Shown piece after piece: positions 5,565 to 48,943 of a stretch of DNA of 64,000 bases. A model generated the notes under the pieces. The model worked only from the letters and a program-made list of their open reading frames with translations, made no database searches and was not told the origin of the DNA. This stretch comes from Patescibacteria group bacterium (lineage in GTDB: Bacteria; Patescibacteriota; Patescibacteriia; Magasanikbacterales; GWA2-37-8): contig SCQK01000007.1 in assembly GCA_004321885.1 (NCBI GenBank), positions 96,001-160,000 on the forward strand. Reading direction: 5' to 3'. A program made the translations under genes and the position numbers. How positions within the stretch are numbered: the stretch's first letter is position 1; every line of letters starts with the position of its first letter.

Positions 5565-5628
5565 TCATGCTGAACTTGTTTCAGCATCTCCACTGGGGAT
5601 CCTGAAACAAGTTCAGGATGACAATGGT
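5565..5628. repeat. Family F palindromic repeat (ggatcctgaaacaagttcaggatgac)
   Basis: Inverted repeat ctgaacttgtttcag flanked by gtcat/atgac; copies at 13718-13748 (inside a CDS), 43140-43175 and within 61545-61590. Confidence 0.7.
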
Positions 5629-5636
5629 TTACATTA

Positions 5637-6662: not shown

Positions 6663-6752
6663 AAGCGATAGGCGATATTCACTTTGCCCCGCCCTTCAAC
6701 CAGCAATCCGAAATATACCTATTAATAAAACTTTTGATATTGAACCATACTT

Positions 6753-7376
6753 CTATCGCTTATCGCTTATCTTCACGCACCCTTGCCTGATAATTTTAAT
6801 TTTTTCAAACTTCACGCTTACTATCGTACTTGGTTTTCTGCGCGGCAGTTTGCCGGCGTCCAGCAAAAAATCCGGCGCGTATTTTTTGCCGGCGAACTTT
6901 TTTATGATATCGCTACTATTATATATATCCCCTTCTCCGCCTATATTGGCCGAGGTGGCGACGAGCGGCCGGCCGAGCGCGGCGCATAATTTTTTGGCCA
7001 ATGGATGCGACGTGACGCGCAGGGCGAGGGTGTTGTTTGATACGACACCGGCGGCCAGACGAAAAGGGATTCCTCGCCGCGCTCGGAATGACAATGAAGC
7101 GACAATCGTGAGCGGGTCGTGCCAATATTGTTTTGCCAATTTTCCAATCGTCTTGTTCCAAACTAAATATTCTTTCGCCATGGCGACAGAAGACGCGACA
7201 ACCAAAAGCGGTTTGCTCTTTGGCCGCTTTTTTATCTTAAAAATTTTATCCACTGCTTTTTGATTCGCCGCGTCGCAACCCAAACCATACGAGGTCTCGG
7301 TGGGGAAAACGACAATTTGACCACTCTTCAAGGCAATAAAAATTTTTTCTATCTCACTTTTTTTCAAGATTATCAT
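6753..7376 (-). CDS. tsaC: L-threonylcarbamoyladenylate synthase (TsaC/YrdC/Sua5 family)
   Basis: YrdC-fold motifs VFPTETSYGLGCDA and LLVATSANIGGEG; contains a short repeat-derived insert (gggattcctcgccgcgctcggaatgaca around 7060-7095). Confidence 0.8.
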   Translation of the reverse strand: MIILKKSEIEKIFIALKSGQIVVFPTETSYGLGCDAANQKAVDKIFKIKKRPKSKPLLVVASSVAMAKEYLVWNKTIGKLAKQYWHDPLTIVASLSFRARRGIPFRLAAGVVSNNTLALRVTSHPLAKKLCAALGRPLVATSANIGGEGDIYNSSDIIKKFAGKKYAPDFLLDAGKLPRRKPSTIVSVKFEKIKIIRQGCVKISDKR

Positions 7377-9395: not shown

Positions 9396-11066
<1,671 letters not shown>

Positions 11067-11366: not shown

Positions 11367-11432
11367 ATATTATTCTGTCATTCCCCCGACTAAGTCGGGG
11401 GAATCCAGTTATAATTAAAAAAAAGACGCATA

Positions 11433-11494: not shown

Positions 11495-12889
11495 TCAAGA
11501 CCTTCTGCGCCCAACCACCAAACCCCACACTCCCCACCAAAAAACCTGTCCCACGTACAATGACCACAAAAAGTGTTCAAAGAGCGCGGCCGCGAGCAGA
11601 GTAGCCAACACCGGAATGAAGACGCGATTATTCGCTGAAACAAACTGGCAGAGTTTTCTGTGGATTAAATAAAAAATAATAAAACCGAACAAGCCCAGCT
11701 CGGCAAACACCAAAACATAAGTATTATGGACCGGCAAAGAGTACAGGCTATGCGTGGCCGCCGCCAACCTGATTGGGTAAAAACCGGGGCCAACACCAAA
11801 CAAAGGATATTTTTTAATAAAAGCAAAGGCGTATTCATATTGATTTTGACGCTCGGAAATGGAGCGGGTTTCCAGCCGGGTATTGGCGCGAATGCGGGTG
11901 GCGAAGACAGGCCATAAGATGATGACAAAAGCAAAAATAACAAGCAAGCTATATGTAATTTGCTTAAAAATAAGCGAGGGGATTCTTCCGCGCGCCCCTT
12001 CAGGGCCTGGTCGAAATAACACCACTAACCAAAAAACCATTCCAACTGCCGCGGCAATCCACGCCCCGCGCGAAAACGATAAAATCAATCCGCTCAAAAC
12101 AAACGTCTGCCCAATGGAAAAAAGGATTTTGCGTCCGCCTTTTTCTATACGCGAATACAATACCAACCCCAGCACAAAAATCACCGCCAAATAAATTCCA
12201 AAAGGATTTGGCCCGCCCAAACTGCCGTACGGACGCAGAAGACGCGCGCCGGCAAACTCAATCACTCCGGCCCCGACGTCATAAGACGCGTGCCCTGCAA
12301 TTCCCAGCCACTTGCTCGCGAACACCCCTTGAACACAAAATTGATACAAGCCCAAAATCGCTTGCCCCACCCCGCCGAGCCATAACGCGCCCAGTGCCCC
12401 CCCCTTTATACTTCGTATTTGCTTGTTCGCTCGGAAGAAAAACTTCATTTTTCTTCTCTCGCTCACTTCGCAAATAAGGGGGGGCGACGGGGGGGTAAAG
12501 GCGACGACCACCCCGAGCGCCATGGCCTCAAGTAATTTGAAAACAAAATAAAAAGAAATACCCTTGTCAAAACTCTTCAAAACGCCGATTCCCAAAATAG
12601 CCAAAAAAATAATTAAATATAAAAGCGCTCGTTTTCTATTTTTCGCCCGCGCAAAAAAATCCCGTCGCGCTTCCTTGCTCCAAAATTTCTCCAGTAAAAA
12701 CAAAAGCAAAATAATCCAGAACAAAATTTCCGTGGCGTATAAGCTCACGGTTCCATATTCCCAAAATTGCCCGTTCAGTTCCCCGTATTTCCAGATATAA
12801 CGGGTTTGCCAAGGCAGGAGAAAGAAGAAAAGGAGTAAGAGGTAATACCGAATTCGTGAAATTAACATAAACAGAATGGCAAAATCCAA
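11495..12889 (-). CDS. Polytopic membrane protein, O-antigen ligase/polymerase (Wzy_C)-like
   Basis: 464 aa with about 10-12 TM helices and a large loop; the general architecture resembles O-antigen ligase family proteins. Tentative. Confidence 0.5.
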   Translation of the reverse strand: MDFAILFMLISRIRYYLLLLFFFLLPWQTRYIWKYGELNGQFWEYGTVSLYATEILFWIILLLFLLEKFWSKEARRDFFARAKNRKRALLYLIIFLAILGIGVLKSFDKGISFYFVFKLLEAMALGVVVAFTPPSPPLICEVSERRKMKFFFRANKQIRSIKGGALGALWLGGVGQAILGLYQFCVQGVFASKWLGIAGHASYDVGAGVIEFAGARLLRPYGSLGGPNPFGIYLAVIFVLGLVLYSRIEKGGRKILFSIGQTFVLSGLILSFSRGAWIAAAVGMVFWLVVLFRPGPEGARGRIPSLIFKQITYSLLVIFAFVIILWPVFATRIRANTRLETRSISERQNQYEYAFAFIKKYPLFGVGPGFYPIRLAAATHSLYSLPVHNTYVLVFAELGLFGFIIFYLIHRKLCQFVSANNRVFIPVLATLLAAALFEHFLWSLYVGQVFWWGVWGLVVGRRRS

Positions 12890-12934
12890 ATGCTTAAATT
12901 TGACATTGGGAATTGAATATTGGACATTGATTGG

Positions 12935-13972
12935 TCATTGGTAATTGGTAATTTTTAATTTCCACTCTTCTCTATATTTCGCCCTGGTGTCATTCTCGTG
13001 AAATTTCAAAATGCCGTCGGAAATCACCACGCTCTTGTCGCCCGCGGCGGCTTTTTCTTTCAAAGAGAACATAAGCCGAGCCATCTGAAGCGCTTTTACC
13101 TGCCCTTCAATCAAATCGCCATACGTTCCGGCCCACATTTTTTCCCAAATTGTTTTCCAAATTTTGCCAAGCCGTGAATCGCGCAAACGCAAGCGCGAAA
13201 CAACTTCAAATCGCGCCAAGGCATTGGGCAAGTATTTTTTTGTCCACGAATTCGCGGCCAAAAAATTGGCGTAATAATTGCCGGGGTCGTATATCGGAAT
13301 CATCTGGTGTATCCAATAAGCAAAATGTATGTCATCATCGGCCACGCGTAAATTTTCCAAATTTAAGTGTTCGCTGTCCGCGTAAAACGACAAACAGACG
13401 CGATTTTTGTGCTTTTGGCCATACACGCGCAAACCCCACAATCGCAAAATTAAATTGGTAAAAAACCGCGCCAACCAGACGCGGCGCGGGGCGGCGACGA
13501 TGAAAAAATCAATGTCGCTTTCTTCCTTCGCCTGCTCCATACCCACGCTGTTGCAGACAAAAACCGCTTTCACAAACGGCGCCGAACGGATTTTTTTGGC
13601 GGCCCGGCGCGCGATTTTTAATTTCTTCTCCGTTTCCGCCAGCCGCGCCCGCCGCGCCTCAACTGTCCCCGCTCGCCCGGGAAGAAAATAATAACTGAAT
13701 TTTGTTTCAACCTTTCTGTCATCCTGAACTTGCTTCAGGATCTCTAAAAATTGCGCAAACCCCATCGCCGGCGCCTGCCCCCACACCAAAGAATTTGGTG
13801 TGGGGGGCGTCCACAAAAAAGAATACACCTCTTCGCGCGTCAGAGGATAATCGGCCGAATCAAAATAAGCCAGAGTTTTCTGAATACTTTCAAGAAGAGC
13901 TTTTTCCATAGGGCTCTTTGTCTGAAATTTCCGCCGCACAAATTGCCAAGCCCTTGTTGCCAATTTCCACAA
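12935..13972 (-). CDS. Hypothetical protein (possible nucleotidyltransferase-fold; carries a family F repeat in frame)
   Basis: 345-aa ORF; GMEQAKEESDIDFFIV resembles a nucleotidyltransferase hG[GS]...D.D motif. 13718-13748 is a family F repeat translated as FAQFLEILKQVQDD. The start may instead be the Met at 13909, since the upstream gene ends at 13890. Confidence 0.45.
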   Translation of the reverse strand: MWKLATRAWQFVRRKFQTKSPMEKALLESIQKTLAYFDSADYPLTREEVYSFLWTPPTPNSLVWGQAPAMGFAQFLEILKQVQDDRKVETKFSYYFLPGRAGTVEARRARLAETEKKLKIARRAAKKIRSAPFVKAVFVCNSVGMEQAKEESDIDFFIVAAPRRVWLARFFTNLILRLWGLRVYGQKHKNRVCLSFYADSEHLNLENLRVADDDIHFAYWIHQMIPIYDPGNYYANFLAANSWTKKYLPNALARFEVVSRLRLRDSRLGKIWKTIWEKMWAGTYGDLIEGQVKALQMARLMFSLKEKAAAGDKSVVISDGILKFHENDTRAKYREEWKLKITNYQ

Positions 13973-15318: not shown

Positions 15319-16560
15319 TTATTCTTTAGTTTCTTCTACTGGCTCTTCTTTGCTTTCCCCAACCTTTTCCTCAATCGGTTCAGCCGCCGCTTCTTCGCTG
15401 GACATTTCCTGAGTGCCGCCCTTTTCTTTCACATTGATGCCCCAGCCCGTAAGCTGGGCCGCCAGGCGCACGTTTTGCCCGCCGCGGCCAATGGCCAAAG
15501 AAAACTGGTCCGGCGCGACATACGCCGAAGCCGTTTTGCTGGCTTCGTCCAATTCCACTTCCGCCACTTTGGCTGGAGACAGCGCGTTGGCAATATAGTT
15601 GACCGGACTTTCGCCATAACGGATGATATCTATTTTTTCTCCGCCCAGCTCTTCTATTATAGTATTGATGCGTCCACCGCGCTGGCCAATGCACGAACCG
15701 ATGGGGTCTATCTGCTCGTCGTTCGCGTCCACAGCCACCTTGGAACGGTAGCCGGGCTCGCGCGCGATGCCTTTTATTTCAATCAGTCCTTCTTTAAGCT
15801 CGGGAATTTCCTGCTTGAAAATTTCCCGCACCAAACCCGCGTCGGCGCGCGATAAAATTATCTCGGGTCCGCGCGGCCCCATCTGCACCGACTGCACCAA
15901 AAATTTCAGCTTGCTCCCGGAACGATAAAAATCGCGGCTGTTTTGCTGTTCCGCGGGCATAATGCCAGTAACTTTGCCCAAATCAACCAAAGTTTTTCTG
16001 CCTTCCACGCGCTGAATCGTGCCGACAATTACCTGACCTTCCTGACCCTTGAAGTCGTCAAACACCATACTGCGCTCGGCTTCGCGCACCTTTTGGATTA
16101 TCACCTGCTTGGCGGTCTGCGCGGCCATGCGTCCGAAATCGCCCCCAGCCTCCAGCTCAATTTCCAGCACCTCGCCGGCCCGGGCGCCTTTTTTGATTTT
16201 TTTCGCCTCCGAGAGCATCATTTCCAGCTTGGGATTAAAGCGCGGCAAATCAGCCACTTCTTCCTCGGTGAGCTCGCGGCCTTCCTCTTTGGCCTTTTCA
16301 CGCCGCTTGGTCAATTCTTCCTGGGCCGCGACCAGCGCCTCCTCGGCAGTATCTTCCACCACGATTTTCACGTCCCACGCTTTCATATCGCCGGTCTCGG
16401 GGTCAAATTTCACCTTGATGTTCTGTTGTTTGTTGCCAAAATCCTTGCGATAAGCCGCGGCCAGCGCCACTTCTATGGCCTCAAGCACCGCCTCGTAGGG
16501 CAGATTTTTTTCCTCGCACAAAAATTGTATGGCCTTGCTGATTTCCGACATAGTTGTCAT
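15319..16560 (-). CDS. nusA: Transcription termination/antitermination factor NusA
   Basis: N-terminal NusA domain, S1 domain and two KH domains (IGSCIGQRGGRI and IGRGGQNVRLAAQLTG). The start codon ATG lies inside the family A repeat at 16554-16589. Confidence 0.9.
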   Translation of the reverse strand: MTTMSEISKAIQFLCEEKNLPYEAVLEAIEVALAAAYRKDFGNKQQNIKVKFDPETGDMKAWDVKIVVEDTAEEALVAAQEELTKRREKAKEEGRELTEEEVADLPRFNPKLEMMLSEAKKIKKGARAGEVLEIELEAGGDFGRMAAQTAKQVIIQKVREAERSMVFDDFKGQEGQVIVGTIQRVEGRKTLVDLGKVTGIMPAEQQNSRDFYRSGSKLKFLVQSVQMGPRGPEIILSRADAGLVREIFKQEIPELKEGLIEIKGIAREPGYRSKVAVDANDEQIDPIGSCIGQRGGRINTIIEELGGEKIDIIRYGESPVNYIANALSPAKVAEVELDEASKTASAYVAPDQFSLAIGRGGQNVRLAAQLTGWGINVKEKGGTQEMSSEEAAAEPIEEKVGESKEEPVEETKE

Positions 16561-16667
16561 TCCCCCGACTTAGTCGGGGGAATCCAGTTATATTAAATTA
16601 AAGAGCCCTTCTTCCGAAGCGCTCTCTTAACAATCAAACCTTGGAATTAAGCATACACCTGTCTGAT

Positions 16668-17306
16668 TCAAATGTCAAGGGCCTTGGCGATATTTTGCGG
16701 CACATGGTGCGGGGTTTTGCCAAATACAACCACTTCATCGCCCGCTTCCAAAAAATTATATAATTTTTCCGCGTTTTTGTAAGCGATGTTCACACAGCCG
16801 TGACTCATGGGTTTTTTGCCAAACTGGTTGTGCCAATACGCGCCGTGGAGATAATAGTGCCTTTTGAATTCCAAATTCCACTTGGTATTGGGCAGGTTGT
16901 AACCGGGCCCGATATAATTCACCACCGGGACTTTGCGCATTATCGTGAATTTGCCCTTGGGCGTGGGCATGCTAACCAGACCGGTGGAAACCGGCATGGC
17001 GCCGATTTTTACATTATTGTAAAAATAATATAACTGCTGTTTGGCCAAATCTACCTCCACGCGGCGCGCGGAGGTTTTTTCTTTGTCCGGCGACAGCGGG
17101 TCGTGTCCGGTGTAAACCTCTTGTCCGTCTTTATAGCCGTCGGCGTCCGAGTCCGGATTGTTCAAATCCGTGCCCAAAGATGTCTCCAGCGCATCGGACA
17201 GGCCGTCTTTGTCTATATCCAAAACGGCCGCGAAAGTGGAGATGGGCAGTAGAATAAAGAATATAATGATTAATATTGTGTACCGCATAAAATTTTCAAT
17301 TACCAA
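16668..17306 (-). CDS. L,D-transpeptidase (YkuD domain) with N-terminal calcium-binding repeats
   Basis: Signal/TM N-terminus, DIDKDGLSDALE and DSDADGYKDGQE motifs, and a catalytic region with HGAYWH and SHGCVNI. Confidence 0.75.
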   Translation of the reverse strand: MVIENFMRYTILIIIFFILLPISTFAAVLDIDKDGLSDALETSLGTDLNNPDSDADGYKDGQEVYTGHDPLSPDKEKTSARRVEVDLAKQQLYYFYNNVKIGAMPVSTGLVSMPTPKGKFTIMRKVPVVNYIGPGYNLPNTKWNLEFKRHYYLHGAYWHNQFGKKPMSHGCVNIAYKNAEKLYNFLEAGDEVVVFGKTPHHVPQNIAKALDI

Positions 17307-17396
17307 TGACCAATTTCCAATAAATGTTCAATATCCAATTCCCGATGTCAAAATTTGACATTTGAACTTTATTATTGATTTGACATTTGTAATTTG

Positions 17397-18928: not shown

Positions 18929-20463
18929 AGATGTTTACCCCTCCCTAACCCTCCCCTTATAAAGGGGAGGGCAATAATAATATACAACAATATCGTCATC
19001 CACCAGCTGATTCGTATTTCCAGCGCGGCCCAGCCCTGTTTTCCAAACCATTCCACTAACATTATAACATACCCAAGTCCGACGCCAACAATCCAGGCCA
19101 CTATCTGTCCCAAAGGAAAAAATATGAAACCGAGCATGACCGCGGCGAATCCAAAAAGCATCAGCCACGGGATAATCCACAGCACCAGCAAATTCACGAG
19201 CGGCGCAACGATAGAGAGGCGGCCGAATTGAAACAGCATCAAAGGCAAAGTGGCGATGATGGCGGAAAGGGTTTGCACCAATGTTTGAAAGAAAAAATTA
19301 ATACTGTCATTGCGAGGAGCCGGAAGCGACGAAGCAATCCCAAGCGATAAATATACGAGTCCCAAAGTCGCTAAAAAAGACAGTTGAAACCCCGCGTCCC
19401 ACACCAGCACGTACGGATTAAAAAGCAACATCAGCGCCGCGGTCAGCGCCAGCACATTGCCCACGCGCGACAAGCGACCCATTTGTTGCGCCAGCAAAAC
19501 AATCACGCCCATTATTCCGGCGCGCACCACCGAAGCCGAGGCGCCGGTAAAGAGCACGAATAAAATTATGCCAACGACCACGGCCCAAAACGCGCGAGGG
19601 CGCGACAGCCCGGCCAGAATAAAAAAACTCATCAGCGCCAAGGCGATGATACTAATGTTGTATCCGGATATGGCGATAATATGAGTGATGCCCGAACGAT
19701 TAAAATCCTCCAGCAGCTCCGTCGGCAGGCCGCTACGCGCGCCGTAGAGCAGTCCGGCCATCAAACTGCTCTTCGGCTCTGGCCAAAGTTTGTCCACCTG
19801 ATTCGCGACAGCCGATTTAAGGCGTAACATGTCATTGCGAGCGACCGTAGGGAGCGCGGCAATCCCATTCTTTGCAAGGGATTGCTTCGTCGTTTCACTC
19901 CTCGCAATGACAGGATTCCCGCACACCGACCAAATCCCATAGCGCGCCAAATACTGGTCATAGCGAAATCCGTCCGGGCTCGCTTTTGGCTCTTGCAATA
20001 CACAAGACAAATTCAACTCCTCTCCATACTCATAGCGCGGATACAGTGGCAGCCAAAAAATAATTTTACCGGAAATATTTTTTGGACAAACAAACGACTG
20101 CCCCGCGCAACTTTTTACTTTCGCCACGTATTTCACGTTGCTTATCCCCGCTTCCGGCTCTTCGCTTACAGCCGCCGTCACTTCCATTTTCTCGCCGTTG
20201 TAATATTTGATACTGCTCGGCGTGATTTTCGGCACGCTGATTAAAAAACGCAAGCCGCCCAAAATAAAAAACAACGCGCAAAGCAGGGCGAAGCGCCAAA
20301 CTTTTTTCTGCCACAGCATTACGGCGAAAAAAAGCGCGGCAAACGCCGCGATAAACAAAGGAAACTGCCAATCACTATTTTCCTGAAGCGAAAACAAACT
20401 CACGCCGGCTATAAAACAAAAGCAAAACGCGAGAAACGTTTTGCTTTTAGAGTGCATTGTCAT
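18925..20463 (-). CDS. comEC: ComEC/Rec2 competence protein, N-terminal (DUF4131) plus polytopic competence-channel domain
   Basis: Competence-domain signature GLPTELLEDFNRSGITHIIAISGYNIS and multiple TM helices. I trimmed the start to MTMHSKSK (20463/20457) because the longer ORF (20697) overlaps leuS. Contains in-frame family B insertions (19300-19345 and 19833-19915). Confidence 0.75.
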   Translation of the reverse strand: MTMHSKSKTFLAFCFCFIAGVSLFSLQENSDWQFPLFIAAFAALFFAVMLWQKKVWRFALLCALFFILGGLRFLISVPKITPSSIKYYNGEKMEVTAAVSEEPEAGISNVKYVAKVKSCAGQSFVCPKNISGKIIFWLPLYPRYEYGEELNLSCVLQEPKASPDGFRYDQYLARYGIWSVCGNPVIARSETTKQSLAKNGIAALPTVARNDMLRLKSAVANQVDKLWPEPKSSLMAGLLYGARSGLPTELLEDFNRSGITHIIAISGYNISIIALALMSFFILAGLSRPRAFWAVVVGIILFVLFTGASASVVRAGIMGVIVLLAQQMGRLSRVGNVLALTAALMLLFNPYVLVWDAGFQLSFLATLGLVYLSLGIASSLPAPRNDSINFFFQTLVQTLSAIIATLPLMLFQFGRLSIVAPLVNLLVLWIIPWLMLFGFAAVMLGFIFFPLGQIVAWIVGVGLGYVIMLVEWFGKQGWAALEIRISWWMTILLYIIIALPFIRGGLGRGKHL

Positions 20464-20474: not shown

Positions 20475-23012
20475 TCACACAACTATACTCACCAACTTTC
20501 CTTTCACGTAAATCACTTTCTTGGGTTGTTTGCCTTCCAGCCATCTCTGAATTTTTTCGCTGGCGAGCGCGCGGCTCTTCGCCTCTTCTTCGGAGATTCC
20601 CGCCACCACTTCCAAAGTGTCGCGCAACTTGCCATTCACCTGCACGGCCAGAGTGATTTCTTTTTCTTTGGCCAGCTCGGGGTCGTACTTCGGCCACGGT
20701 TCAAATGTGATGGATTTTTTATGTCCCAATAGCGACCACAACTCTTCGCACATGTGCGGAGCGAAGGGCGAAAGAATTTTTACGAATAATTCAAAATTCG
20801 CGATGGAAATTTTTGCCTGCTTTGAAAATTCATTACTCAATTCCATCATTTTCGCTATGGCCGTATTAAATCTCATCGCTTCAATATCTTCGGTGACTTT
20901 TTTGATTGTTTGGTGAAGTAGCTGCGTCATGCTGTCATTGCGAGGAGCCGAAGGCGACGTGGCAATCCCTTTCTTTGTTTGGGATTGCTTCGCTTCGCTC
21001 GCAATGACATTGAGCCCCCACACCCTCTCCAAAAACCTACGCACCCCTATCAATCCATTCGTATCCCACTCCACGGCCTGGTCAAACGGCCCCATGAACA
21101 TTATATACGTGCGCAAAGAATCCGCGCCGAATTTTTCCACCATTTCGTCCGGGTTTACCACGTTGCCTTTTGATTTACTCATTTTTTCTCCGCCTTTGGC
21201 TAAAATCATGCCGTGGCTGGTGCGTTTTTTGTACGGCTCACGCGTGGGCACAGCGCCGATGTCAAACAAAAACTGATTCCAAAAACGGGAATACAACAAA
21301 TGTAGAACCGTGTGCTCCATGCCGCCATTATACCAATCCACGCCGCCTTCGCCCGGCTTCGCGGGCTTCGGCGGGCAAAGCCAATATTTTAGCTTTTCCA
21401 TTGAGGCCAATTTCTTATCGTTTTTCGGGTCGCAGTAGCGCAAAAAATACCAACTGCTTCCGGCCCAATTCGGCATGGTGTCTGTTTCGCGCCGAGCCGG
21501 GCCGCCACATTTCGGGCATTTTGTTTTCACCCATTTTTCCATCGCGGCCAAGGGCGATTCGCCTGTGTCGGTCGGCTCATATTTTTTCACTTTCGGCAAT
21601 TCCAAAGGCAAATCTTCTTCCGCCAGCGGAATCCATCCTGGATTCAATCGCTCACCATCGTTTGGAAATTGGAAATTGGAAATTGGAAATTCCGCTTGTT
21701 TTTCGCACGCGGGACAAAAAACAAGCGGGATGGGTTCGCCCCAATAGCGCTGTCGCGAAAACACCCAATCGCGGAGTTTGTATTGCACTTTTTTCTCGCC
21801 AATCTTTTTTTCTTCCAGCCACTTCATTATTTTTTCCATCGGCTCGGGCACGATTTCCTTTATCGGCAAATTAAATTTCTTGGCAAACTCACTGTCGCGC
21901 TCGTCGTGCGCGGGCACGGCCATAATGGCGCCGGTGCCATAACCGGCCAAAACATAATCCGCTACCCACACCGGAATTTCCTTACCCGTGGCCGGGTTAA
22001 TCGCTTTGATACCCTTCAATTCCACGCCTGTTTTCTCTTTTTGAAGCTCTGTCCTCTCTAAATCCGATTTTTTCTTAGCTGATTCAACATATTTTTTTAC
22101 TTCGTCTATATTTGGAAATTGGAAATTGGAAATTGGAAATTTGAGGAGCGAAGCGACGAGTTCATGTTCGGGCGCGACAACCATGTACGTGGCGCCGAAG
22201 AGAGTGTCGGGGCGAGTGGTGAAGACCTCAAGCACACTGTCATTGCGAGGAGCCGAAGGCGACGTGGCAATCCCTTTCTTTGTTTGGGATTGCTTCACTT
22301 CGTTCGCAATGACAAATTTAATCATCGCGCCTTCGCTTCTGCCAATCCAATTTTCCTGCTGGACTTTTGCGCGTTCAATATAATCCACCTCTTTCAAGCC
22401 CTCCAGTAATTTATCCGCGTACTTGGTAATCGCCAGCATCCATTGCTCCTTATTGCGCCGCTCCACCGGCGTACCACAGCGCTCGCACTTGCCGTCCACC
22501 ACTTCCTCGTTGGCTAAGCCGATTTTACACGACGGGCACCAGTTTATGGGCATGGCTTTTTTGTAAGCCAAACCGTGCTTGAAAAGCTGTAAAAAAATCC
22601 ACTGGGTCCATTTGTAATATTTCGGGTCCGTGGTATCCACCTGCCGCGACCAATCAAAACTTAAACCGAGCGATTTTAGCTGGCGCGTGAAATTGGAGAT
22701 GTTTTTTTTCGTCACCTCGGCCGGGGGTTTGCCGGTCTTGATAGCAAAATTTTCCGTCGGCAGGCCGAAAGCGTCAAATCCAATAGGATACAAAACATTG
22801 TAGCCCTCCATGCGGCGCTTGCGCGAAATAATATCCATGGCCGTGTAGGCGCGCGGATGTCCCACGTGCAAACCCTCGCCGCTCGGATACGGAAACTCAA
22901 TCAAAGAATAAAACTTCTTTTTTTTCTTATCTTCTTTAACCTCAAAAGTCCCGTTCTCTTCCCAAAACTTCTGCCACTTTTTTTCAATTTTTTTCGGGTC
23001 GTATTTTGGCAT
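20475..23012 (-). CDS. leuS: Leucyl-tRNA synthetase, with four in-frame repeat insertions
   Basis: HVGH (HIGH-type) motif near the N-terminus, KMSKS, and editing domain. Two family B insertions (both translated ...[20 protein letters not shown]...) and two GGAAATT microsatellite insertions (FPISNFQFP). Confidence 0.9.
20934..21008. repeat. Family B element inserted in frame in leuS
   Basis: gtcattgcgaggagccgaaggcgacgtggcaatccctttctttgtttgggattgcttcgcttcgctcgcaatgac; an identical copy at 22239-22313 lies also inside leuS. Confidence 0.85.
22114..22141. repeat. Family C GGAAATT heptamer microsatellite (4 copies) inside leuS
   Basis: ggaaatt x4; other arrays at 21663-21683, 36368-36398, 58432-58460, 60418-60452, 60885-60915 and intergenic 17300-17345. 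Confidence 0.85.
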
Positions 23013-24190: not shown

Positions 24191-24316
24191 TAAATTAAAA
24201 CGGAGGGTATATATAATTTTTGTAGCGGCCATCGCACCCCCGCGGGGCAGCGGTCGCCGCAGGCGACCCTGTTTGGCCGCAAAAAAATTATATATACCCT
24301 CCGTTGTTTTAATTTA
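24191..24316. repeat. Long perfect AT-rich palindrome (about 33-bp arms) enclosing a conserved 57-nt GC-rich structured core, copy 1 (downstream of trxA)
   Basis: Arms taaattaaaacggagggtatatataatttttg / caaaaaaattatatataccctccgttgttttaattta; core gcggccatcgcacccccgcggggcagcggtcgccgcaggcgaccctgtttggccgc. The right arm overlaps the trxA stop codon. Confidence 0.8.
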
Positions 24317-24634: not shown

Positions 24635-24698
24635 ATTTATTTTTTTCTGGATTCCCCCGTACTTAGTCGGGGGAATGACAGCTTGTGTTTAATTATTA

Positions 24699-24803
24699 GC
24701 AAAGTTTTGTGATTTTTTTCGCAGCGGCCATCGCACCCCCAAGGGGCAGTGGTCGCCGCAGGCGACCCTGTTTGGCCGCAAAAAAAAATTCACAAAACTT
24801 TGC
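24699..24803. repeat. Copy 2 of the conserved 57-nt core in a different perfect palindrome (about 22-bp arms), upstream of trxA
   Basis: Arms gcaaagttttgtgatttttttc / gaaaaaaaaattcacaaaactttgc; core gcagcggccatcgcacccccaaggggcagtggtcgccgcaggcgaccctgtttggccgc, in the same orientation as copy 1. Confidence 0.8.
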
Positions 24804-24805: not shown

Positions 24806-26824
24806 TTAACTTAACACCAACTTTTTCTCCTTTTCCTCTTCCTTGTAACACTCCAGCACATCATCTATCTCCAATTTTAATTTACCCTCAAACTGCGCCC
24901 CGCACTCGCTACCCTCGGGCACTTCGTTCAAAATCTGCTTGGCCACCTGCAACTGCGACAACTTACCCAAGCCGATAATCTCTTCCCCGCGCTTTACTCG
25001 CGCTTTACAGCCCTTCTGCAGTTTGCCCTGTTCCACGCGGCCGCCGACTATCATATTGCCCTTGCCGGTGCGGAAAATCGCCACCACCTTGAACACCCCG
25101 AGTTCAGTAGTAATTTTTTCCGGACTCAACAACTTGCCCATTTCTTCTTTGACGAAATCCAGCAGGTCGTAAATTATTTTGTACTCATTATACACTAATT
25201 TTTTATCGCGCGCCATTTCTTGCGCCACCGGGTTGATGGTAACATTAAAAGCAAAAAGCATGGCGCCGGCGGCTTCGGCCTTGGCCACGTCATCTACCGT
25301 CACATTGCCCAGGCCCTTGCCCACCACGCGCACGCCCACCTCGTCATTTTTAATTTTTCCCAGCGAACCGATAATCGCTTCCAGCGAGCCGAGCGTATCG
25401 CCCTTCACCACCACGTTCAAAACCTTCTTTTGCTCGTCGCTTTCAGCCGCGCCCAGGGCAAAAGTTTCTTTTTCCGCGCCCATCTGCTTATTTTTTTTCT
25501 CTTTTATGTCAATGGCCTTGGCCCCGGCGGCCGCGGCCACGTCCAAAATATCCCCCACGGCCGGCGCCACCTTAAATCCCAGAATGCGCGCCGGACAGCT
25601 GGGCGGGGCCGTCAGCAAATTTTCTCCTTTGTGATTTTTCATGGCCCGCACCTTGCCGTAAATCTCGCCGTTTATCACCAGCGGGTCGTTCACGCGCAAA
25701 GTGCCGGTCTGCACCAAAATCGTGGCCACCGGGCCTTCGCCCTTGTCCACGTGCGCCTCAATGACCGTGCCCGCGGCCGAGCGGTCCGGATTGGCTTTAA
25801 TGCTGTCGGCATGCACGTCGGCCACTAAAAGCAACACATCAAGTAGCTTATCTATGTGCAAATTCTGTTTGGCGGAAATTTCCACCATGGGCGTGTCCCC
25901 GCCCCACTCCTCGCCTATCACTCCGTTTTGCGACAAATCAACGCGCACCTTTTGCGGGTCAGCTCCCTCTTTGTCAATTTTATTGAGCGCCACCACGGTC
26001 GGAATTTTGGCGGCCTTGATAATGTTTATCGCTTCCAAGGTTTGGGGCTTGACGCTGTCGTCGGCCGCCACCACCAGAATGGCGATGTCAGCCACCTTGG
26101 TGCCGCGGCTGCGCATCACCGTAAAGGCCTCGTGCCCGGGAGTGTCTATAAATGTCAGGGGGGATTTTTCTTTGGTTTTGGGATTGGTCCAAATCACCTG
26201 ATAAGCGCCGATGTGCTGGGTAATGCCACCAGCCTCGGATTCCATGACATTGGTGCGTCGAATAGCGTCTAACAATTTTGTTTTACCGTGGTCAACGTGC
26301 CCCATCACCACGATAACGGGCGGGCGGCGCGTGGTAGCGTCCGCGGCCAAAATTGATTCCAAATTATTTTCGTGCGCCGAGACTGCTTCGGTTTTTTGCT
26401 CGGGTTCGCGCACGGTAAAACCGAATTCCTGCGCCATCAGCACGGCCGTGTCATGGTCCAGGCGCTCGTTTTGCGCAGCCAAAATTCCGTTTTTCATGAG
26501 TTCAACGATAAGGCCGGTAACCGGCATCTGCAAAATATCGGCGAATTGGCGCACGGTCAGCTGGTTTGGTATGGCCACGCTGGCGCCGCTCGTCTGGCGC
26601 GCCTCTTTTTCCAGCTCTTTTTGTTTTTCTTTTTCCTTGCGCTCGCGCTCTTCCAGCACGAACTTTATCCGTTTCCAGGCGCGCTGAATCTGCTGGGCCA
26701 CGCGGTCATCCACTTTCACGGCCCGAGCGCCGATATCAAAACCAAACTCTGGCAAAATTTGCAAAAGTTTTTGGGGGTGGACTCGGAGTTGTCTGGCCAG
26801 TTCGCTTACGTTCATAAAGCTCAA
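24806..26824 (-). CDS. infB: Translation initiation factor IF-2
   Basis: GTPase domain (GHVDHGKTKLLD, DTPGHEAF, NKIDK), then IF-2 domains II-IV; 672 aa. Confidence 0.9.
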   Translation of the reverse strand: MSFMNVSELARQLRVHPQKLLQILPEFGFDIGARAVKVDDRVAQQIQRAWKRIKFVLEERERKEKEKQKELEKEARQTSGASVAIPNQLTVRQFADILQMPVTGLIVELMKNGILAAQNERLDHDTAVLMAQEFGFTVREPEQKTEAVSAHENNLESILAADATTRRPPVIVVMGHVDHGKTKLLDAIRRTNVMESEAGGITQHIGAYQVIWTNPKTKEKSPLTFIDTPGHEAFTVMRSRGTKVADIAILVVAADDSVKPQTLEAINIIKAAKIPTVVALNKIDKEGADPQKVRVDLSQNGVIGEEWGGDTPMVEISAKQNLHIDKLLDVLLLVADVHADSIKANPDRSAAGTVIEAHVDKGEGPVATILVQTGTLRVNDPLVINGEIYGKVRAMKNHKGENLLTAPPSCPARILGFKVAPAVGDILDVAAAAGAKAIDIKEKKNKQMGAEKETFALGAAESDEQKKVLNVVVKGDTLGSLEAIIGSLGKIKNDEVGVRVVGKGLGNVTVDDVAKAEAAGAMLFAFNVTINPVAQEMARDKKLVYNEYKIIYDLLDFVKEEMGKLLSPEKITTELGVFKVVAIFRTGKGNMIVGGRVEQGKLQKGCKARVKRGEEIIGLGKLSQLQVAKQILNEVPEGSECGAQFEGKLKLEIDDVLECYKEEEKEKKLVLS

Positions 26825-26826: not shown

Positions 26827-27240
26827 ACCCTCTCCTGTTAGGGGAGGGATAAAGGGATGGGGTATCCACTCAATATCCCTAAAATCTTACTCTCTTACAC
26901 TGAATTAGTCAAATACGGGAATATCGCTGGCTCCATAGTGCCCGACTTAGTCGGGGCTGTGGAGCCGTAATGCACTCTGGCTCCACGCACAGCATGGAGC
27001 CAGCGACATTTGACACGCGCCCGATTTTGTGATAAAGTGATTTCACAATTAAAATAATAATTCTGGATTCCCCCGACTTAGTCGGGGGAATGACAGATGA
27101 GATTTTTGAGGGAATTTTTTAAGAGGAAACTCGTATGGCTCGTGCGGCTGAAACTGCCAAAAATACGCTAACGAAAACACTTTCAAGCGCTATCCGTGTG
27201 TGGGTTCCCCCGTACTTAGTCGGGGGAATGACAAACGAAT
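26827..27240. repeat. Intergenic repeat hotspot with a family D hairpin, a family E element and two family A copies
   Basis: 26827-26862 (D), 26925-27010 (E: ggctccatagtgcccgacttagtcggggctgtggagcc...), 27063-27098 (A), 27203-27238 (A); a 500-bp spacer between infB and rny. Confidence 0.8.
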
Positions 27241-27332
27241 CGGCCATCACTTCGGCTTTGTTTGCGTTCGTAAAATAAACAAGGCCTCTCTTCTTAAAAT
27301 TTTCGCCCGCAAAAATCGCGGAAATTTTTTGT

Positions 27333-28862
27333 ATGACTAAAGAACTGCTCTGGGCGGTTATAACCGCTCTAATTACCGGCGCCGGCATCGCGCTCGGCTA
27401 TTTTTTGCGCAAAAAAATCGCCCAGGCCCAGGCCAATTCCATAGAAGCCAAGGCGGAAAAAATTCTGACCGAGGCCAAAACTAAACAACAAGAATTTATC
27501 CTGCAGGCCAAGGAAAAAGCCGAACATATCATAGACGAAGCCAAGCGCGAAGAAAAACAACTCCGCGCCGAATTGCACAACCTGCAACAGCGGCTGGAGC
27601 GGCGCGAAAGCATGTTTGACCAAAAACTTTTGGAATTTCAGGACAAACAGCAAAAGTTGCAGGAAAAGGTGGAGCGCGTCCAGCAGATAAAGCAAGAATT
27701 GGAACGAGCGCGCGAACAGGAAATGGTGAAATTACAGGAGCTGGCCGGCCTGACGCGCGATGAAGCCAAAACCGAATTGCTGAACCGCGTGGAACAGCAA
27801 AGCAAAGACGACCTGATGTTGCGCATAATGAAGCTGGAAAAAGAAAACAACGACGCCTTCCAGGAAAAAGCCAGGGATATAATCACCGAGGCCATTCAAC
27901 GTTGCGCGTCTTCGCACGCGGCCGACATCACTTCCACGACAGTAGCGCTGCCGAGCGAAGACATGAAAGGCCGAATCATCGGCAAGGAAGGCCGCAACAT
28001 CAAGACCATAGAAAAACTGACCGGTTGCGAACTGGTAATAGACGACAGCCCGGACACGATTATGGTTTCGGGCTTCTCGCCCATCCGCCGGCAAATCGCC
28101 AAGCTGGCGCTGGAAAAGCTGATGGCCGACGGCCGCATCCAGCCGGCGCGCATTGAAGAATTTATAGAAAAAGCCAAGCAGGATTTGGCTTTGGACATAA
28201 AAAAGGCGGGCGAAGAGGCCCTGTATAAAATGGGCATCACCGGCATTGACCCCAAACTGGTCGGCATCGTGGGACGGCTGAAATACCGTACCAGCTACGG
28301 CCAAAACATCCTAAACCATTCTATGGAAGTAGGCTACTTGTCGGGCCTTATCGCCAGCGAGCTGGGGCTGGACGCGGCCAAAGCCAAAAAGTGCGGCTTT
28401 TTCCATGACATCGGCAAGTCCGTGGACCAGGAAACCCAGGGCACTCACCCGGAAATCGGCGGGGTTATTCTGAAGAAATTCAACATGGACGAGGACCTGG
28501 TGCAGGCCGCGCAAACCCACCACAACGACAAACCATACAATATCTATTCTTCCATCGTCAAAGCCGCCGATGCCATTTCCGGCGCGCGCGTCGGGGCGCG
28601 CAAAGACAGCTACGAAGCCTTTGTGGCGCGCCTGGAAGAGCTGGAAAAAACCGCCGCGGCTTTTCCGGGCATTGAAAAAGTCTACGCCATTCAGGCCGGA
28701 CGCGAGGTGCGCGTGTTTGTGAAGCCCAATGAAATAGACGACTACTCGGCTTTTCAGCTGGCCAAAGACATTGCCCGCAAGATTGAGCAGGACTTGCAGT
28801 ACCCGGGCGAAATCCGCGTCAGCATTATCCGCGAAACCCGCGTGGTGGAATACGCCAGATAA
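27333..28862 (+). CDS. rny: Ribonuclease Y
   Basis: N-terminal TM anchor, coiled coil, KH domain (IIGKEGRNIKTIEKLTG) and HD domain (HSMEV...FFHDIGK...THH); 509 aa. Confidence 0.85.
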   Translation: MTKELLWAVITALITGAGIALGYFLRKKIAQAQANSIEAKAEKILTEAKTKQQEFILQAKEKAEHIIDEAKREEKQLRAELHNLQQRLERRESMFDQKLLEFQDKQQKLQEKVERVQQIKQELERAREQEMVKLQELAGLTRDEAKTELLNRVEQQSKDDLMLRIMKLEKENNDAFQEKARDIITEAIQRCASSHAADITSTTVALPSEDMKGRIIGKEGRNIKTIEKLTGCELVIDDSPDTIMVSGFSPIRRQIAKLALEKLMADGRIQPARIEEFIEKAKQDLALDIKKAGEEALYKMGITGIDPKLVGIVGRLKYRTSYGQNILNHSMEVGYLSGLIASELGLDAAKAKKCGFFHDIGKSVDQETQGTHPEIGGVILKKFNMDEDLVQAAQTHHNDKPYNIYSSIVKAADAISGARVGARKDSYEAFVARLEELEKTAAAFPGIEKVYAIQAGREVRVFVKPNEIDDYSAFQLAKDIARKIEQDLQYPGEIRVSIIRETRVVEYAR

Positions 28863-28984
28863 TCAACTGTCATTTCACGGCCTTTACTGTCATTCCAGCG
28901 CAGGCGGGAATCCACGGTGGTCAAAACAATTATTTTGTGTTAGAGTTATCCATATGCCTAACTTCAACCGAAAGGGGGTGACTT

Positions 28985-29263
28985 ATGAATAAAGCAGAAT
29001 TAGCCCAGAAACTGGCGGAAAAATTGAATGTCGCCAAGAAACAGGCCGAAGATATGTTGAATACTTTCACTGACCTGGTTACCGAAGCGCTCAAAAAAGG
29101 CGAAGAGGTGGTGCTTACTGGTTTCGGCGCTTTCAGCGCCAAACAGCGCGCCGCCCGCCAAGGCGTCAATCCGCAGAACCCTTCGCAGAAAATCAGCATC
29201 CCGGCTGTCACCGTGCCGAAATTCAAAGCCGGCAAGGCCCTGAAAGACGCTTTGAAACAGTGA
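28985..29263 (+). CDS. hup: DNA-binding protein HU
   Basis: 92 aa with HU/IHF signatures (GFGAFSAKQRAARQGVNPQN...IPAVTVPKFKAGKALKDA); GGGGGTG Shine-Dalgarno upstream. Confidence 0.85.
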   Translation: MNKAELAQKLAEKLNVAKKQAEDMLNTFTDLVTEALKKGEEVVLTGFGAFSAKQRAARQGVNPQNPSQKISIPAVTVPKFKAGKALKDALKQ

Positions 29264-29307
29264 TTATTTTGAGCAAAAAGGCCCCCGCCGCAAACGGAGG
29301 GCTTTAT

Positions 29308-29379
29308 GGCCCCATCGTCTAATGGTTAGGACGCTGCCCTTTCAAGGCGGAAATCCGGGTTCGATTCCCGGTAGGGTCA
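29308..29379 (+). tRNA. tRNA-Glu (anticodon UUC); CCA not encoded
   Basis: Manual fold: acceptor ggcccca/tagggtc (one C-A mismatch), D arm gtct-aatggttag-gacg, anticodon stem ctgcc/ggcgg with loop ctTTCaa, T arm ccggg-ttcgatt-cccgg. Confidence 0.75.
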
Positions 29380-29456
29380 CACACTTCAATACTTCAAATT
29401 GTAAAATTATTGTACAGCTGATATAATACATATATTAATATATCATCAGTACAAAT

Positions 29457-35443: not shown

Positions 35444-36529
35444 ATGCTTCTGTTAGGCATAGAGTCATCTTGCGACGATACTTCAGTGGCCCTGGTCGCC
35501 TGCGGCGAACGGGGCTGTTTTGTGGTTGCCGAAAAAACCGCTTCGCAAACCGCGCTCCATAAAAAATACGGGGGCGTGGTGCCGGAAATAGCCGGGCGGG
35601 CGCACGCGGAAAAAATCGTGCCCCTGATTGAGGCGGTTCTGCGAGGAAAAAAGCCGGATGTTATCGCCGTAACCGCCGGACCCGGATTGATTACCGGTTT
35701 GCTGGTTGGCGTGGAAGCGGCGCGCGTTTTGTCATACGCGTGGAATGTGCCGCTATTGGCGGTAAATCATATTGAAGGGCACATCTATTCCGTGGAATTG
35801 GAAAACGAAAAAATCAAGTTCCCCGCTCTCGCGCTTATTGCCAGCGGTGGTCATACCGAGCTGATTTTTATGAAAAACCACGGCCAGCACAAACTGCTTG
35901 GCGCCACGCGCGACGACGCGGCCGGCGAATGTTTTGACAAGGTCGCCAAACTGCTCGGTCTCCCCTACCCGGGCGGTCCGGAAATTTCTCGGCTGGCGAT
36001 TGGCGGCGACCCGGGCGCCATAAAATTTCCGCGGCCGATGATAGAAAGCGATAATTACGACTTCAGTTTTGCCGGATTAAAAACCGCGGCGCTGTATTGG
36101 TTAAGGGATAATGTCATTGCGAGGCCTGAAAGGCCGAAGCAATCCCCCACAATCAAGCAAGGGATTGCTTCGCTTCGTTCCACTTCGCTCGCAATGACAA
36201 TGAATGATTTCTGCGCCAGTTTTGAGCAAGCGATAGTAGACGTCTTGGTCGCGAAAACTCTGAAAGCGGCCAGACAATACAAACCGAAAACCGTTATTCT
36301 TGCTGGCGGGGTTTCGGCGAACAAGAAACTTCGCTCTGCGCTTGAAAAGGCAATAAAAACTCTCGCTCCAATTACCAATTTCCAATTACCAATTTCCAAT
36401 TATTGTATGGACAACGCGGCCATGCTCGCCGTGGCCGGATATTATCGCGCGAAGAAAAAAAATTTCACTGATTGGAAAAAAATCCAAGCTGACCCGAATT
36501 GGACGATTTCTGGATTCCCCCGTACTTAG
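35444..36529 (+). CDS. tsaD: tRNA N6-adenosine threonylcarbamoyltransferase TsaD (Kae1/YgjD family) with in-frame repeat insertions
   Basis: MLLLGIESSCDDTSVAL start, HIEGH metal-binding motif and GGVSAN. I trimmed the start from 35180 because that ORF runs through the tRNA genes. Insertions: family B (36107-36197), GGAAATT-type (36368-36398) and family A at the 3' end (36512-36546). Confidence 0.85.
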   Translation: MLLLGIESSCDDTSVALVACGERGCFVVAEKTASQTALHKKYGGVVPEIAGRAHAEKIVPLIEAVLRGKKPDVIAVTAGPGLITGLLVGVEAARVLSYAWNVPLLAVNHIEGHIYSVELENEKIKFPALALIASGGHTELIFMKNHGQHKLLGATRDDAAGECFDKVAKLLGLPYPGGPEISRLAIGGDPGAIKFPRPMIESDNYDFSFAGLKTAALYWLRDNVIARPERPKQSPTIKQGIASLRSTSLAMTMNDFCASFEQAIVDVLVAKTLKAARQYKPKTVILAGGVSANKKLRSALEKAIKTLAPITNFQLPISNYCMDNAAMLAVAGYYRAKKKNFTDWKKIQADPNWTISGFPRT

Positions 36530-36551
36530 TCGGGGGAATGACAAACTTGCG

Positions 36552-43137: not shown

Positions 43138-43172
43138 AAACGGGGATCCTGAAACAAGTTCAGGATGACAAT

Positions 43173-48393: not shown

Positions 48394-48436
48394 TTTCCCT
48401 CCCCTTTATAAGGGGAGGGATAGGGAGGGGTAAATT

Positions 48437-48943
48437 ATGCTTTCCATCAAACTCCATCGCCAAAAACCCGGACTGTGCGGACCGGCTTGCCTGAAAATGG
48501 CGCTGGAATTTTTTTCGGCCAAAGGCCGACCCGCCTTTGGCGGGGGCAAAAGCGAAGCCGAATTGACGCGACTGGCCAAAGGCACAAAAAACAAAGGCAC
48601 AAACGCGGCTGATTTACTGGGCGTGGCGCGCTCACTCGGGTTTGATGGATTTATTAAGGACTCCGCGGAAATAAAAGACATAAAAAAATTTGTTGTAAAC
48701 AACAAAATCCCCGTTATAGTGGATTGGTTTTCTCGCGACGACGGCCATTACAGCGTGGTCGTTGACGTTGATAACAAAAATATTTTTCTGGCCGACCCGG
48801 AAACGGCGAAAATAAAAAAGATTGATTTAAAAACTTTCAAACGCGTCTGGTTTGATTTCCCGGGCGATTTTCTAAAAACCAAAAACGAAATTATTATCCG
48901 AAGGATGATTGTCATTTGGCCGACCAATTTCCTCTCCCCTTGA
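48437..48943 (+). CDS. Papain-like peptidase C39-like domain protein
   Basis: Catalytic Cys in GLCGPACLKMAL and a His in DGHYSVVVDV, typical of the C39 / peptidase_C39_2 fold; no ABC transporter partner nearby. Confidence 0.5.
   Translation: MLSIKLHRQKPGLCGPACLKMALEFFSAKGRPAFGGGKSEAELTRLAKGTKNKGTNAADLLGVARSLGFDGFIKDSAEIKDIKKFVVNNKIPVIVDWFSRDDGHYSVVVDVDNKNIFLADPETAKIKKIDLKTFKRVWFDFPGDFLKTKNEIIIRRMIVIWPTNFLSP

Follow-up and report, generated by a model that had tools for sequence, protein, structure and literature searches.

Three kinds of short hairpin repeat are dispersed through the 64,000-nt stretch of contig SCQK01000007.1 studied here (the window; all positions count from its first letter). 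Five copies of these repeats lie in the 414-bp interval 26827–27240, which has otherwise no recognisable feature and is the intergenic region between infB (24806–26824, minus strand) and the RNase Y gene rny (27333–28862, plus strand). The three kinds are family A together with other TGTC-tagged units, family E, and hairpins of the GGGGAGGG type. An earlier note on this DNA had read families A and E as parts of a single combinatorial system of nested palindromes with interchangeable arms and cores, possibly spread by one hairpin-recognising enzyme. Our analysis makes a different account reasonably probable, in which each of the three kinds belongs with its own nuclease gene, beside which it lies in other contigs, and tips have been copied between hairpins by short-patch templated copying. 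The modular look of the repeats is due mainly to a conserved hairpin foot and conserved flanks that enclose a free tip, so that the core, which the note had taken as the shared and defining part, is the part that varies. Identical tips in hairpins of different kinds are real, and they go beyond what free-tip anatomy alone explains.

Family A and the other TGTC-tagged units

The elements that the earlier note had quoted are all present. Of its central palindrome, CCCGACTWAGTCGGG, there are five copies in the window (0.00 expected from 100 shuffles), four of them within family A arms and one within family E arms, and five more family A copies contain a version of this core that is one base longer. 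The arms of family A extend beyond gtcattcc/ggaatgac and comprise an unpaired TGTC tag, a stem that opens with AT, and a CCA(G) tail. The same frame, (T/C)GTC-AT[stem-loop-stem]AT-C(CA), is common to family A, to its supposed core-swapped variants, and to the TGTCAT-CCTGAAC... and TGTCAT-TGCGAG... families. The hexamer TGTCAT is found 68 times in the window, compared to about 31 expected, and most occurrences open a hairpin that closes with ATCC. A strict detector found 18 TGTC units, with 0–2 in shuffles, and a relaxed detector found 31. The published degenerate search pattern for Ssn-related motifs (SRM) had 12 matches in the window, compared to 0.27 on average (at most 1) over 30 dinucleotide shuffles; 11 of these matches were real units, and every TGTC-tagged family A copy was among them. 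Folded as DNA, family A gave -14.6 kcal/mol (z -6.2), and the unit at 53630 gave -11.4 kcal/mol (z -5.7). In the interval, the family A unit at 27063–27095 (minus strand) reads TGTC-ATTCC-CCCGACTAAGTCGGG-GGAAT-CCAG and is an Ssn-related motif, and the unit at 27200–27233 (minus strand) has the longer tip, CCCCCGACTAAGTACGGGGG, and a degenerate 3' tail.

Repeats with this frame have been described twice. The CGTC-tagged repetitive extragenic palindromes (REPs) have the tag CGTC, often TGTC, stems that open with AT, a CCA tail, and commonly a head-to-head dimer arrangement; Di Nocera et al. 2013 equated them with Neisseria dRS3 and with Rickettsia RPE-4 and RPE-6, and assigned them no dedicated transposase (PMC3733652). 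In 2025 the same repeat kind was re-described as Neisseria NTS, or Ssn-related motifs (Nat Commun, PMC11893778). In that work SsnA, a GIY-YIG nuclease of 94 amino acids, bound and cut NTS as single-stranded DNA only, with the C that follows the palindrome critical for binding and the three bases that precede it critical for cutting; Ssn did not bind RNA, and the ssnA gene was flanked by its own repeats (PMC11893778). The flanks and foot that are conserved across the family A variants are the very parts read by this known Ssn enzyme. Judged by sequence, then, family A, its variants, and the CCTGAAC and TGCGAG families are CGTC-tagged REPs, which is to say Ssn-related motifs, and family A is a long-stemmed member of a known repeat kind. 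The possibility that family A is a miniature inverted-repeat transposable element was rejected, as no direct repeats (target-site duplications) flank the nine family A copies and no transposase with matching ends was found in the window.

In related contigs, TGTC units adjoin a small GIY-YIG gene. Such a gene, of about 95–115 codons, is accompanied by five units in a Magasanikbacteria metagenome-assembled genome (MAG; L023), by two units in metagenome contig L179, and by one in metagenome contig L150. In a further contig, L249, found through the L023-type GIY-YIG protein, four TGTC units lie within about 150 nt of two tandem GIY-YIG genes. The background density of TGTC units is 0.16 per kb. 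The Ssn-like proteins of the related contigs match the Pfam GIY-YIG family and have no NCBIfam match. In the 64-kb window, a regular expression and a home-made GIY-YIG profile, applied to the six-frame translation, found no GIY-YIG or Ssn-like gene, and the best 120 matches to a Magasanikbacteria Ssn-like protein included none on the window's source contig.

In L249, which is of the Magasanikbacteria clade, at positions 5001–7280, three tandem TGTC units precede the two tandem Ssn-like GIY-YIG genes, and these are followed directly by a gene for a PIF1-family helicase.

Family E and its transposase

Family E is present in seven copies in the window, arranged in three pairs. One pair lies in the interval, where the hairpin at 26929–26966 (plus strand) has the tip CCCGACTTAGTCGGG and is followed by the conserved 3' tail GTAATGCA, and its doublet partner at 26979–27001 (plus strand) is a short hairpin, GGCTCCA-CGCACAGCA-TGGAGCC. 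As DNA, the doublet 26929–27001 folds with -31.5 kcal/mol (z -8.5). Metagenome contigs were scanned for E arms with any core between them, which gave at least 120 stretches and at least 164 copies; the counts that follow are among the matches listed. There were 115 distinct cores in 164 copies, mostly small stem-loops such as CCCGAAGGG and GGCGCAGCC, and 65 of the 164 cores contained C-GNA-G, a motif typical of very stable DNA mini-hairpins. What is conserved is the flank, with the consensus GCT-GGCTCC...GGAGCC-NNNNTGCA, including a 5' GCT and a 3' TGCA tail. The orientation of the repeat is marked by a conserved T.G wobble, found in 136 copies compared to about 15 with perfect pairs (~90%).

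Nine open reading frames (ORFs) had E on both sides, and eight of them belonged to one protein family of about 180 amino acids that matches PF01797. One member was scanned against NCBIfam and scored 101.9 bits, with a cut-off of 80, as a REP-associated tyrosine transposase (RAYT; NF047646). The E copies around the RAYT gene are in inverted orientation. Since the ORFs flanked by E are of the RAYT family in eight of nine cases and the flanking copies are inverted, family E is, on the genes that it surrounds, the REP of a RAYT, and its system is distinct from that of family A. A phmmer search with an E-linked RAYT found no RAYT in the window. The earlier note was right to advise a search for RAYTs and other proteins that bind hairpins.

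The GGGGAGGG hairpins and DUF559 genes

The third kind is represented in the interval by a unit at 26828–26864 (plus strand), immediately upstream of infB, which consists of CCCTCTCC-TGTTA-GGGGAGGG and the G-rich tail ATAAAGGGATGGGGTA. Pfam scans of ten unassigned ORFs identified the only nuclease gene of the window, a DUF559 (PF04480) endonuclease gene at 49075–49509 (plus strand), and this gene is surrounded by units of the GGGGAGGG type. Upstream, in the span 48394–49061 (plus strand), there is one unit at 48394–48432 and a set of three tandem units at 48929–49061, with a Peptidase_C39 gene at 48437–48943; at the 3' end of the DUF559 gene there is an inverted pair at 49443–49533. In a first set of loci, GGGGAGGG-type hairpins were found within 400 nt of three of the four DUF559 genes, the window's included, with a background of 0.027 per kb.

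Five independent DUF559 loci were then obtained through homologues, from a CPR-like (candidate phyla radiation) contig, a Planctomycetota chromosome, a Bacteroidetes MAG, a Magasanikbacteria contig and a Nostocaceae contig. In all five the DUF559 gene was flanked on both sides by a hairpin with a polypyrimidine stem, a loop and a polypurine stem, after which come another purine block and TAA, and all 13 such hairpins in the 32 kb of these loci lay no more than 430 nt from the DUF559 gene. Flanking GGGGAGGG-type hairpins were found in the window (48394–49533) and at eight of nine DUF559 loci examined, from several phyla (loci L242–L248, L189 and L129). A literature search turned up no link of DUF559 to repeats, although absence there is no proof. 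The pairing of GGGGAGGG hairpins with DUF559 genes, as it appears from gene order, may be a new enzyme-repeat association. If the adjacency reflects recognition, it would provide a substrate for a large family of unknown function, and possibly a new class of structure-specific nuclease, as Ssn did.

Tips shared between repeat kinds

Only three palindromes are shared between different arms in the window. The first is the 15-nt tip of families A and E. In E, the CCC and GGG of this core are E's usual inner stem, and therefore the non-trivially shared part in E is the 9-mer GACTWAGTC. The E and A copies that share the tip are about 100 nt apart.

The second shared tip is in recG. A long GGGGAGGG-type unit at 61541–61600 (plus strand), translated in frame, reads CCCTCCCC-TTTC-AGAGCCTG-CCCTGAACTTGTTTCAGGG-GGAGGG plus tail. 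The loop CCTGAACTTGTTTCAGG of this CCCTCCCC/GGGGAGGG hairpin is identical over 17 nt to the tips of the TGTCAT...ATCC units at 5597–5623 and 43144–43170. The earlier note's description of the recG insert as a hairpin with another repeat's core in its loop was accurate, the core being a TGTC-unit tip, but the insert is not a one-off recombinant. Rather, it belongs to a composite subtype (pyrimidine stem, AGAGCCTG, inner hairpin, purine stem) that was found in five loci, including Bacteroidetes MAGs and metagenome contigs. The inner hairpin of this subtype varies between genomes; in this genome all 17 of its 17 positions are those of the tip found in the local TGTC units. As DNA, the long unit did not fold significantly more stably than shuffles (z -1.2).

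The third shared tip, not noticed in the earlier note, is GGTCGCCGCAGGCGACC, which is found in the E copy at 5975 and in a composite repeat at 24252 and 24751. The composite is a hairpin of the form GTAG-CGGCCA...TGGCCGC, and its two 71-nt copies, at 24217–24287 and 24716–24786 (both plus strand, 93% identical), lie 499 nt apart between a gene of 258 codons and infB. Each is bounded by runs of T and A, has GTAG immediately ahead of its outer stem, and encloses two inner hairpins; the tip shared with E is one of the two. A second E copy has, at 56683–56720, the core of the first shared tip with two substitutions.

A metagenome contig, L143, provides an independent replicate of tip sharing: the 14-mer tip TCCGCCGCGGCGGA is common to an E hairpin and to a TGTC unit that lies 143 nt away. 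The 15-mer tip of the window was found in none of the 164 E and 108 TGTC units sampled elsewhere (among the matches listed), so the combination of E with the 15-mer is local to this lineage. A scan of species-representative genomes for the 15-mer gave at least 117 stretches. In these the 15-mer occupies at least 18 GTCAT...ATC frames of at least 13 arm types, in Magasanikbacteria, Roizmanbacteria, Omnitrophota, a gammaproteobacterial MAG and an unclassified bacterium. Given so many arm types elsewhere, the presence of one tip in different feet is a recurrent pattern. To this extent the earlier note was right: nested palindromes and a modular build are there, with different cores in the same arms (as in E, and in the ATTCC/GGAAT arms of the window, which enclose at least six different cores) and with the same core in different arms.

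A further palindrome, the 20-nt CCTGCCTGCCGGCAGGCAGG, is absent from the window and behaves differently. It is found inside E loops (L149 and L201), inside the loops of Ssn motifs (L066 and L109), beside such units, and in heptamer arrays; the loci with this mini-palindrome are L066 (~2760–2800), L149 (~222–272), L201, L109, L160, L163, L203, L229 and L072. In L066 (CCCGCG^AAAGCGGG) and L149 (CCC^TAAAGGG) its insertion keeps the loop of the host hairpin.

Two further observations concern tRNA-like and tmRNA sequences. CCCGACTTAGTCGGG stands at the position of the anticodon arm in tRNA-like sequences that were not called by ARAGORN, in L027 (~2292), L080 (~2155), L073 (~5399) and L082 (~1818). 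With a 7-nt loop, TTA would be the anticodon, and in tRNA clusters two of these sequences immediately adjoin small GIY-YIG genes. In L028 (4981–5394) the 15-mer is inside a tmRNA gene, which is followed by a GIY-YIG gene.

Origin of the shared tips

In each kind of repeat the hairpin foot and the unpaired flanks are conserved, and the tip may be anything that pairs. The three kinds are separate, each adjoining its own small nuclease gene in related contigs (GIY-YIG for TGTC units, RAYT for E, and DUF559 for GGGGAGGG hairpins). Beyond this we propose the following. The source genome would encode the cognate enzymes outside the window, from where they may act on these copies. Identical palindromic tips of 9–17 nt would be copied from hairpin to hairpin by short-patch templated copying, that is, by template switching or conversion, at C-run/G-run junctions of hairpins that have been extruded in single-stranded DNA. 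Templated copying is the most likely source of the shared tips, and we favour it because every junction falls in a C-run/G-run of both partners and because the two cleanest cases are neighbours.

Several points weigh against this proposal. The mini-palindrome CCTGCCTGCCGGCAGGCAGG inserts into loops and leaves the host loop in place, which favours insertion over conversion for that module at least. The 15-mer, with its 13 or more arm types in several phyla, could be a tip conserved for its function, or else a mini-element that is autonomous. In only one of the four cross-kind cases in the window are the partners close together. The nearest relative is only 85–86% identical in RNase Y, and comparison with it gave no pair of filled and empty sites and no tip-only polymorphism. 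The 64-kb window has neither a GIY-YIG nor a RAYT gene, and E is without the GTAG tag that marks the classical REPs of RAYTs. Finally, 13 of the 31 TGTC units (~42%) are inside long ORFs, compared to 2% of NTS inside genes in N. meningitidis (PMC11893778).

The main alternative for the tips themselves is that the shared cores are autonomous mobile palindromes of 17–21 nt that insert into hairpin loops and other targets, in the manner of the small dispersed repeats of cyanobacteria. The several contexts of CCTGCCTGCCGGCAGGCAGG and the loops kept in L066 and L149 are what such an element would leave, and the 15-mer is found elsewhere in many unrelated hairpins besides its GTCAT...ATC arms, usually as T-core-A. 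By a rough estimate, about 1100 chance matches to the 15-mer are expected in 596 Gb, and many solo occurrences may be due to chance. In the window none of the three shared cores occurs solo, neither A nor E has a remnant of a host loop, there are no target duplications, and there is no candidate enzyme. Because solo copies and retained loops are missing from the window, insertion is ranked second for its three tips, and we think this explanation possible but doubtful. Rather less probable is an absence of any exchange in this genome, the apparent hybrids being old composite subtypes that are inherited vertically and whose tips are conserved because they function. The five loci of the recG-type long unit, which extend to Bacteroidetes MAGs, and the 15-mer in Ssn-motif frames of CPR, Omnitrophota and Gammaproteobacteria MAGs are in keeping with great age. 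Against this, the inner hairpin of the long unit differs by genome and here matches the local tip completely, E with the 15-mer is not among the 164 E copies from elsewhere, and in L143 it is a different tip that E and a TGTC unit 143 nt apart have in common. A genome-specific inner hairpin, a lineage-local E tip and the L143 pair look like within-genome homogenisation rather than inheritance.

Templated copying between separate kinds is also to be compared with two accounts that concern the repeats as a whole. The single system of the earlier note, with exchangeable arm and core modules and one hairpin-recognising enzyme, would give identical cores in different arms and different cores in the same arms, and the families do co-occur elsewhere, with 108 TGTC units in loci selected for E (among the matches listed). 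Each kind, however, has conserved flanks of its own and, in related contigs, a neighbouring nuclease of unrelated fold (GIY-YIG, HUH tyrosine transposase, or PD-(D/E)xK-type DUF559), and the cores, by which one enzyme would have to recognise all the kinds, are the least conserved part; we regard a single enzyme as very unlikely. Least probable of all is that the hairpins are RNA elements, such as terminators, attenuators or mRNA stabilisers, which resemble each other through convergence on stable stems. Several units do lie just past stop codons or between convergent genes, and REPs have been proposed to act in this way (PMC3733652). But about 40% are inside coding sequences, in both orientations and translated in frame, and exact identity over 15–17 nt is not convergence. 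Moreover, the C-GNA-G motif common in E cores is one of DNA mini-hairpins, Ssn does not bind RNA, and there is no Rfam match: no Rfam family was found in the interval, and in the entire window there were only two tRNAs.

Further copies in the window

Outside the interval, family A units are at 11032–11064, 11376–11408 and 16555–16587 (all plus strand). Units with the longer tip are at 5771–5804 (plus strand, in frame within the KsgA/RsmA gene), 24647–24680 and 36510–36543 (both minus strand), and 58830–58863 (minus strand, within the RadA gene). The TGTC-ATTCC frame is found with the tips TGCGCAAGCA at 1199–1226 (minus strand; three mismatches to the Neisseria NTS consensus), GAGCGCGGCGA at 7065–7093 (minus strand, within a gene), AGCGCAGGCG at 28888–28915 (plus strand; fits the published SRM pattern and is identical in the independent assembly L001) and GGGCTTGACCC at 58745–58773 (minus strand, within RadA). 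The unit TGTCATTCCCGCGAAAGCGGGAATCCAG at 53630–53657 (plus strand), also of this frame, has a single mismatch to the N. meningitidis NTS consensus and is in frame in a ClpC-like gene, where it encodes CHSRESGNP. The variants at 28888, 53630 and 58745, noticed previously as A arms with other cores, are genuine, and those at 1199 and 7065 are additional. The possibility that these ATTCC-N-GGAAT units are dRS3 of a Neisseriaceae genome was rejected, since RNase Y and other genes, and the names of their homologues, are those of Patescibacteria.

Head-to-head dimers are frequent among the TGTC-tagged units, with seven in the window, whereas family A is always single. One dimer, at 5563–5623, consists of TGTCAT-(G/C)CTGAACTTGTTTCAG(C/G)-ATC units; related single units are TGTCAT-CCTGAACTTGCTTCAGG-ATC at 13717–13745 (plus strand, in frame in a gene as EILKQVQDD) and TGTCAT-CCTGAACTTGTTTCAGG-ATCC at 43142–43170 (minus strand, between pheS and pheT). 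The remaining dimers are of the TGTCAT-TGCGAG...GAAGCA-ATCCC family, at 4855–4937, at 19830–19912 in the ComEC region, at 20933–21009 and 22238–22314 in frame within LeuRS, at 36112–36199 within the TsaD ORF, and at 59761–59838 between radA and recG; a single unit of this family is at 19305–19340 (plus strand), also in the ComEC region. The other family E hairpins, all on the plus strand, are at 5905–5942 (tip CCCCCAAAGGGGG, in frame in KsgA), at 5961–6007 (tip GGTCGCCTGCGGCGACC, the one in common with 24252 and 24751), and at 56648–56672, a short hairpin that is the partner of the copy at 56681–56722 (tip CCCCGACTCAATCGGGG) described above.

Host genome and recent expansion of the repeats

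The gene content of the window (RNase Y, GroEL, LeuRS, DnaE, PheST, ClpC-like, RecG, RadA and ComEC) and the names of the homologues point to a Magasanikbacteria-like Patescibacteria (CPR) genome as the host, with Magasanikbacteria as the nearest named relatives. An independent Logan assembly is 100% identical to the window over 27207–29380, indicating that the repeats are no assembly artefact. The first 4 kb of the window have a higher G+C content, which is due to a single open frame at 1–4894 (minus strand) of at least 1631 codons that runs off the start of the window and probably encodes a large secreted or surface protein; a TGCGAG dimer precedes its start.

The next relatives, only 85–86% identical in RNase Y, have almost no units, and they have other genes between infB and rny. 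In one of them, L119 (85% identical in RNase Y), the gene order is the same and there are almost no units in 21 kb. LeuRS has 845 amino acids in the window (20475–23012) compared to 772 in L119 (3359–5677), the difference comprising five extra in-frame segments. Four of these are translations of repeats, namely two TGCGAG dimers and two heptamer arrays, and the fifth, of 12 residues, is in no defined family. Copies that are in frame or otherwise intragenic are also found in the genes for RecG, the ClpC-like protein, KsgA, RadA and TsaD. Arrays of a tandem heptamer, (TTGGAAA)n or a close variant of it, were located at 12881–12963, 17289–17338, 21651–21694, 22101–22144, 36368–36417, 58426–58475, 60412–60455 and 60878–60921, and several of them are translated in frame, twice in LeuRS and twice in RecG.

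That 64 kb of a streamlined genome can hold dozens of hairpins, almost half of which are translated as part of essential proteins, matters for the annotation of CPR proteins, in which odd insertions may have this origin. The results place an Ssn/NTS-type repeat and a RAYT-type REP in CPR, whose genomes are so small that candidate partner proteins are few. Identical tips in repeats that adjoin unrelated nuclease genes offer a concrete means of testing whether small palindromes spread by conversion or through nested insertion. We can go further only tentatively, and rather doubt the following as a whole: DUF559 endonucleases would join RAYT-REP and Ssn-NTS as a third, hitherto undescribed nuclease class with a hairpin repeat of its own (hairpin-DUF559-hairpin), and the three repeat kinds, exchanging tips within a CPR genome of roughly 1 Mb and written in frame into essential genes, would constitute a common 'economy' of single-stranded-DNA hairpins instead of standing as separate systems.

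Comparison with known systems

In-frame insertion into essential genes without their destruction is reportedly a property of the Rickettsia palindromic elements of Ogata et al. (2000), and in this the repeats of the window resemble them. The window units are much shorter (28–80 bp), they belong to several families at once, and they are carried by a CPR bacterium of free-living or episymbiotic habit. The heptamer arrays recall the heptamer repeats of cyanobacteria. The small dispersed repeats of cyanobacteria, said to have been described by Elhai et al. in 2008 (Genome Res; cited in PMC3116915), are reportedly also very small, mutually nested, and found in hairpins and heptamer arrays; CCTGCCTGCCGGCAGGCAGG and the heptamers of the window may be compared with them, the likeness being one of description only.

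The window units are like the CGTC REPs in the TGTC variant of the tag, AT-opening stems, CCA tail and head-to-head dimers, and in the presence of several sub-families per genome, of intragenic copies and of occasional nesting in other palindromes. They differ in having stems of 5–12 bp and loops that reach about 20 nt, compared to the 8–9 bp and 4–5 nt described, in their host, which is new at the level of phylum, and in having tips identical to those of non-CGTC repeats (PMC3733652). With NTS/SRM they share the unpaired (C/T)GTC, a palindrome that opens with AT, and the C after the palindrome, and the GIY-YIG gene of about 95–115 codons is flanked by units in four CPR-type contigs, as is ssnA. 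The differences are a Patescibacteria host, a group not mentioned in that work; a family A stem of 12 bp with a nested tip, compared to the 8-bp stem and 4-nt loop of NTS; the far larger intragenic fraction given above; and the lack of an ssn gene in the window (PMC11893778). Family E has a 5' GCT and a 3' NNNNTGCA in place of GTAG, a very variable tip, and no RAYT in the window, but it is like the REP/REPIN-RAYT systems in being a short imperfect palindrome, in its frequent doublets, and in flanking a single RAYT gene in inverted orientation (PMC3116915; NF047646). In sum, the main families are known kinds of repeat in a new host group, and the sharing of tips between kinds and the association with DUF559 are the parts that may be new.

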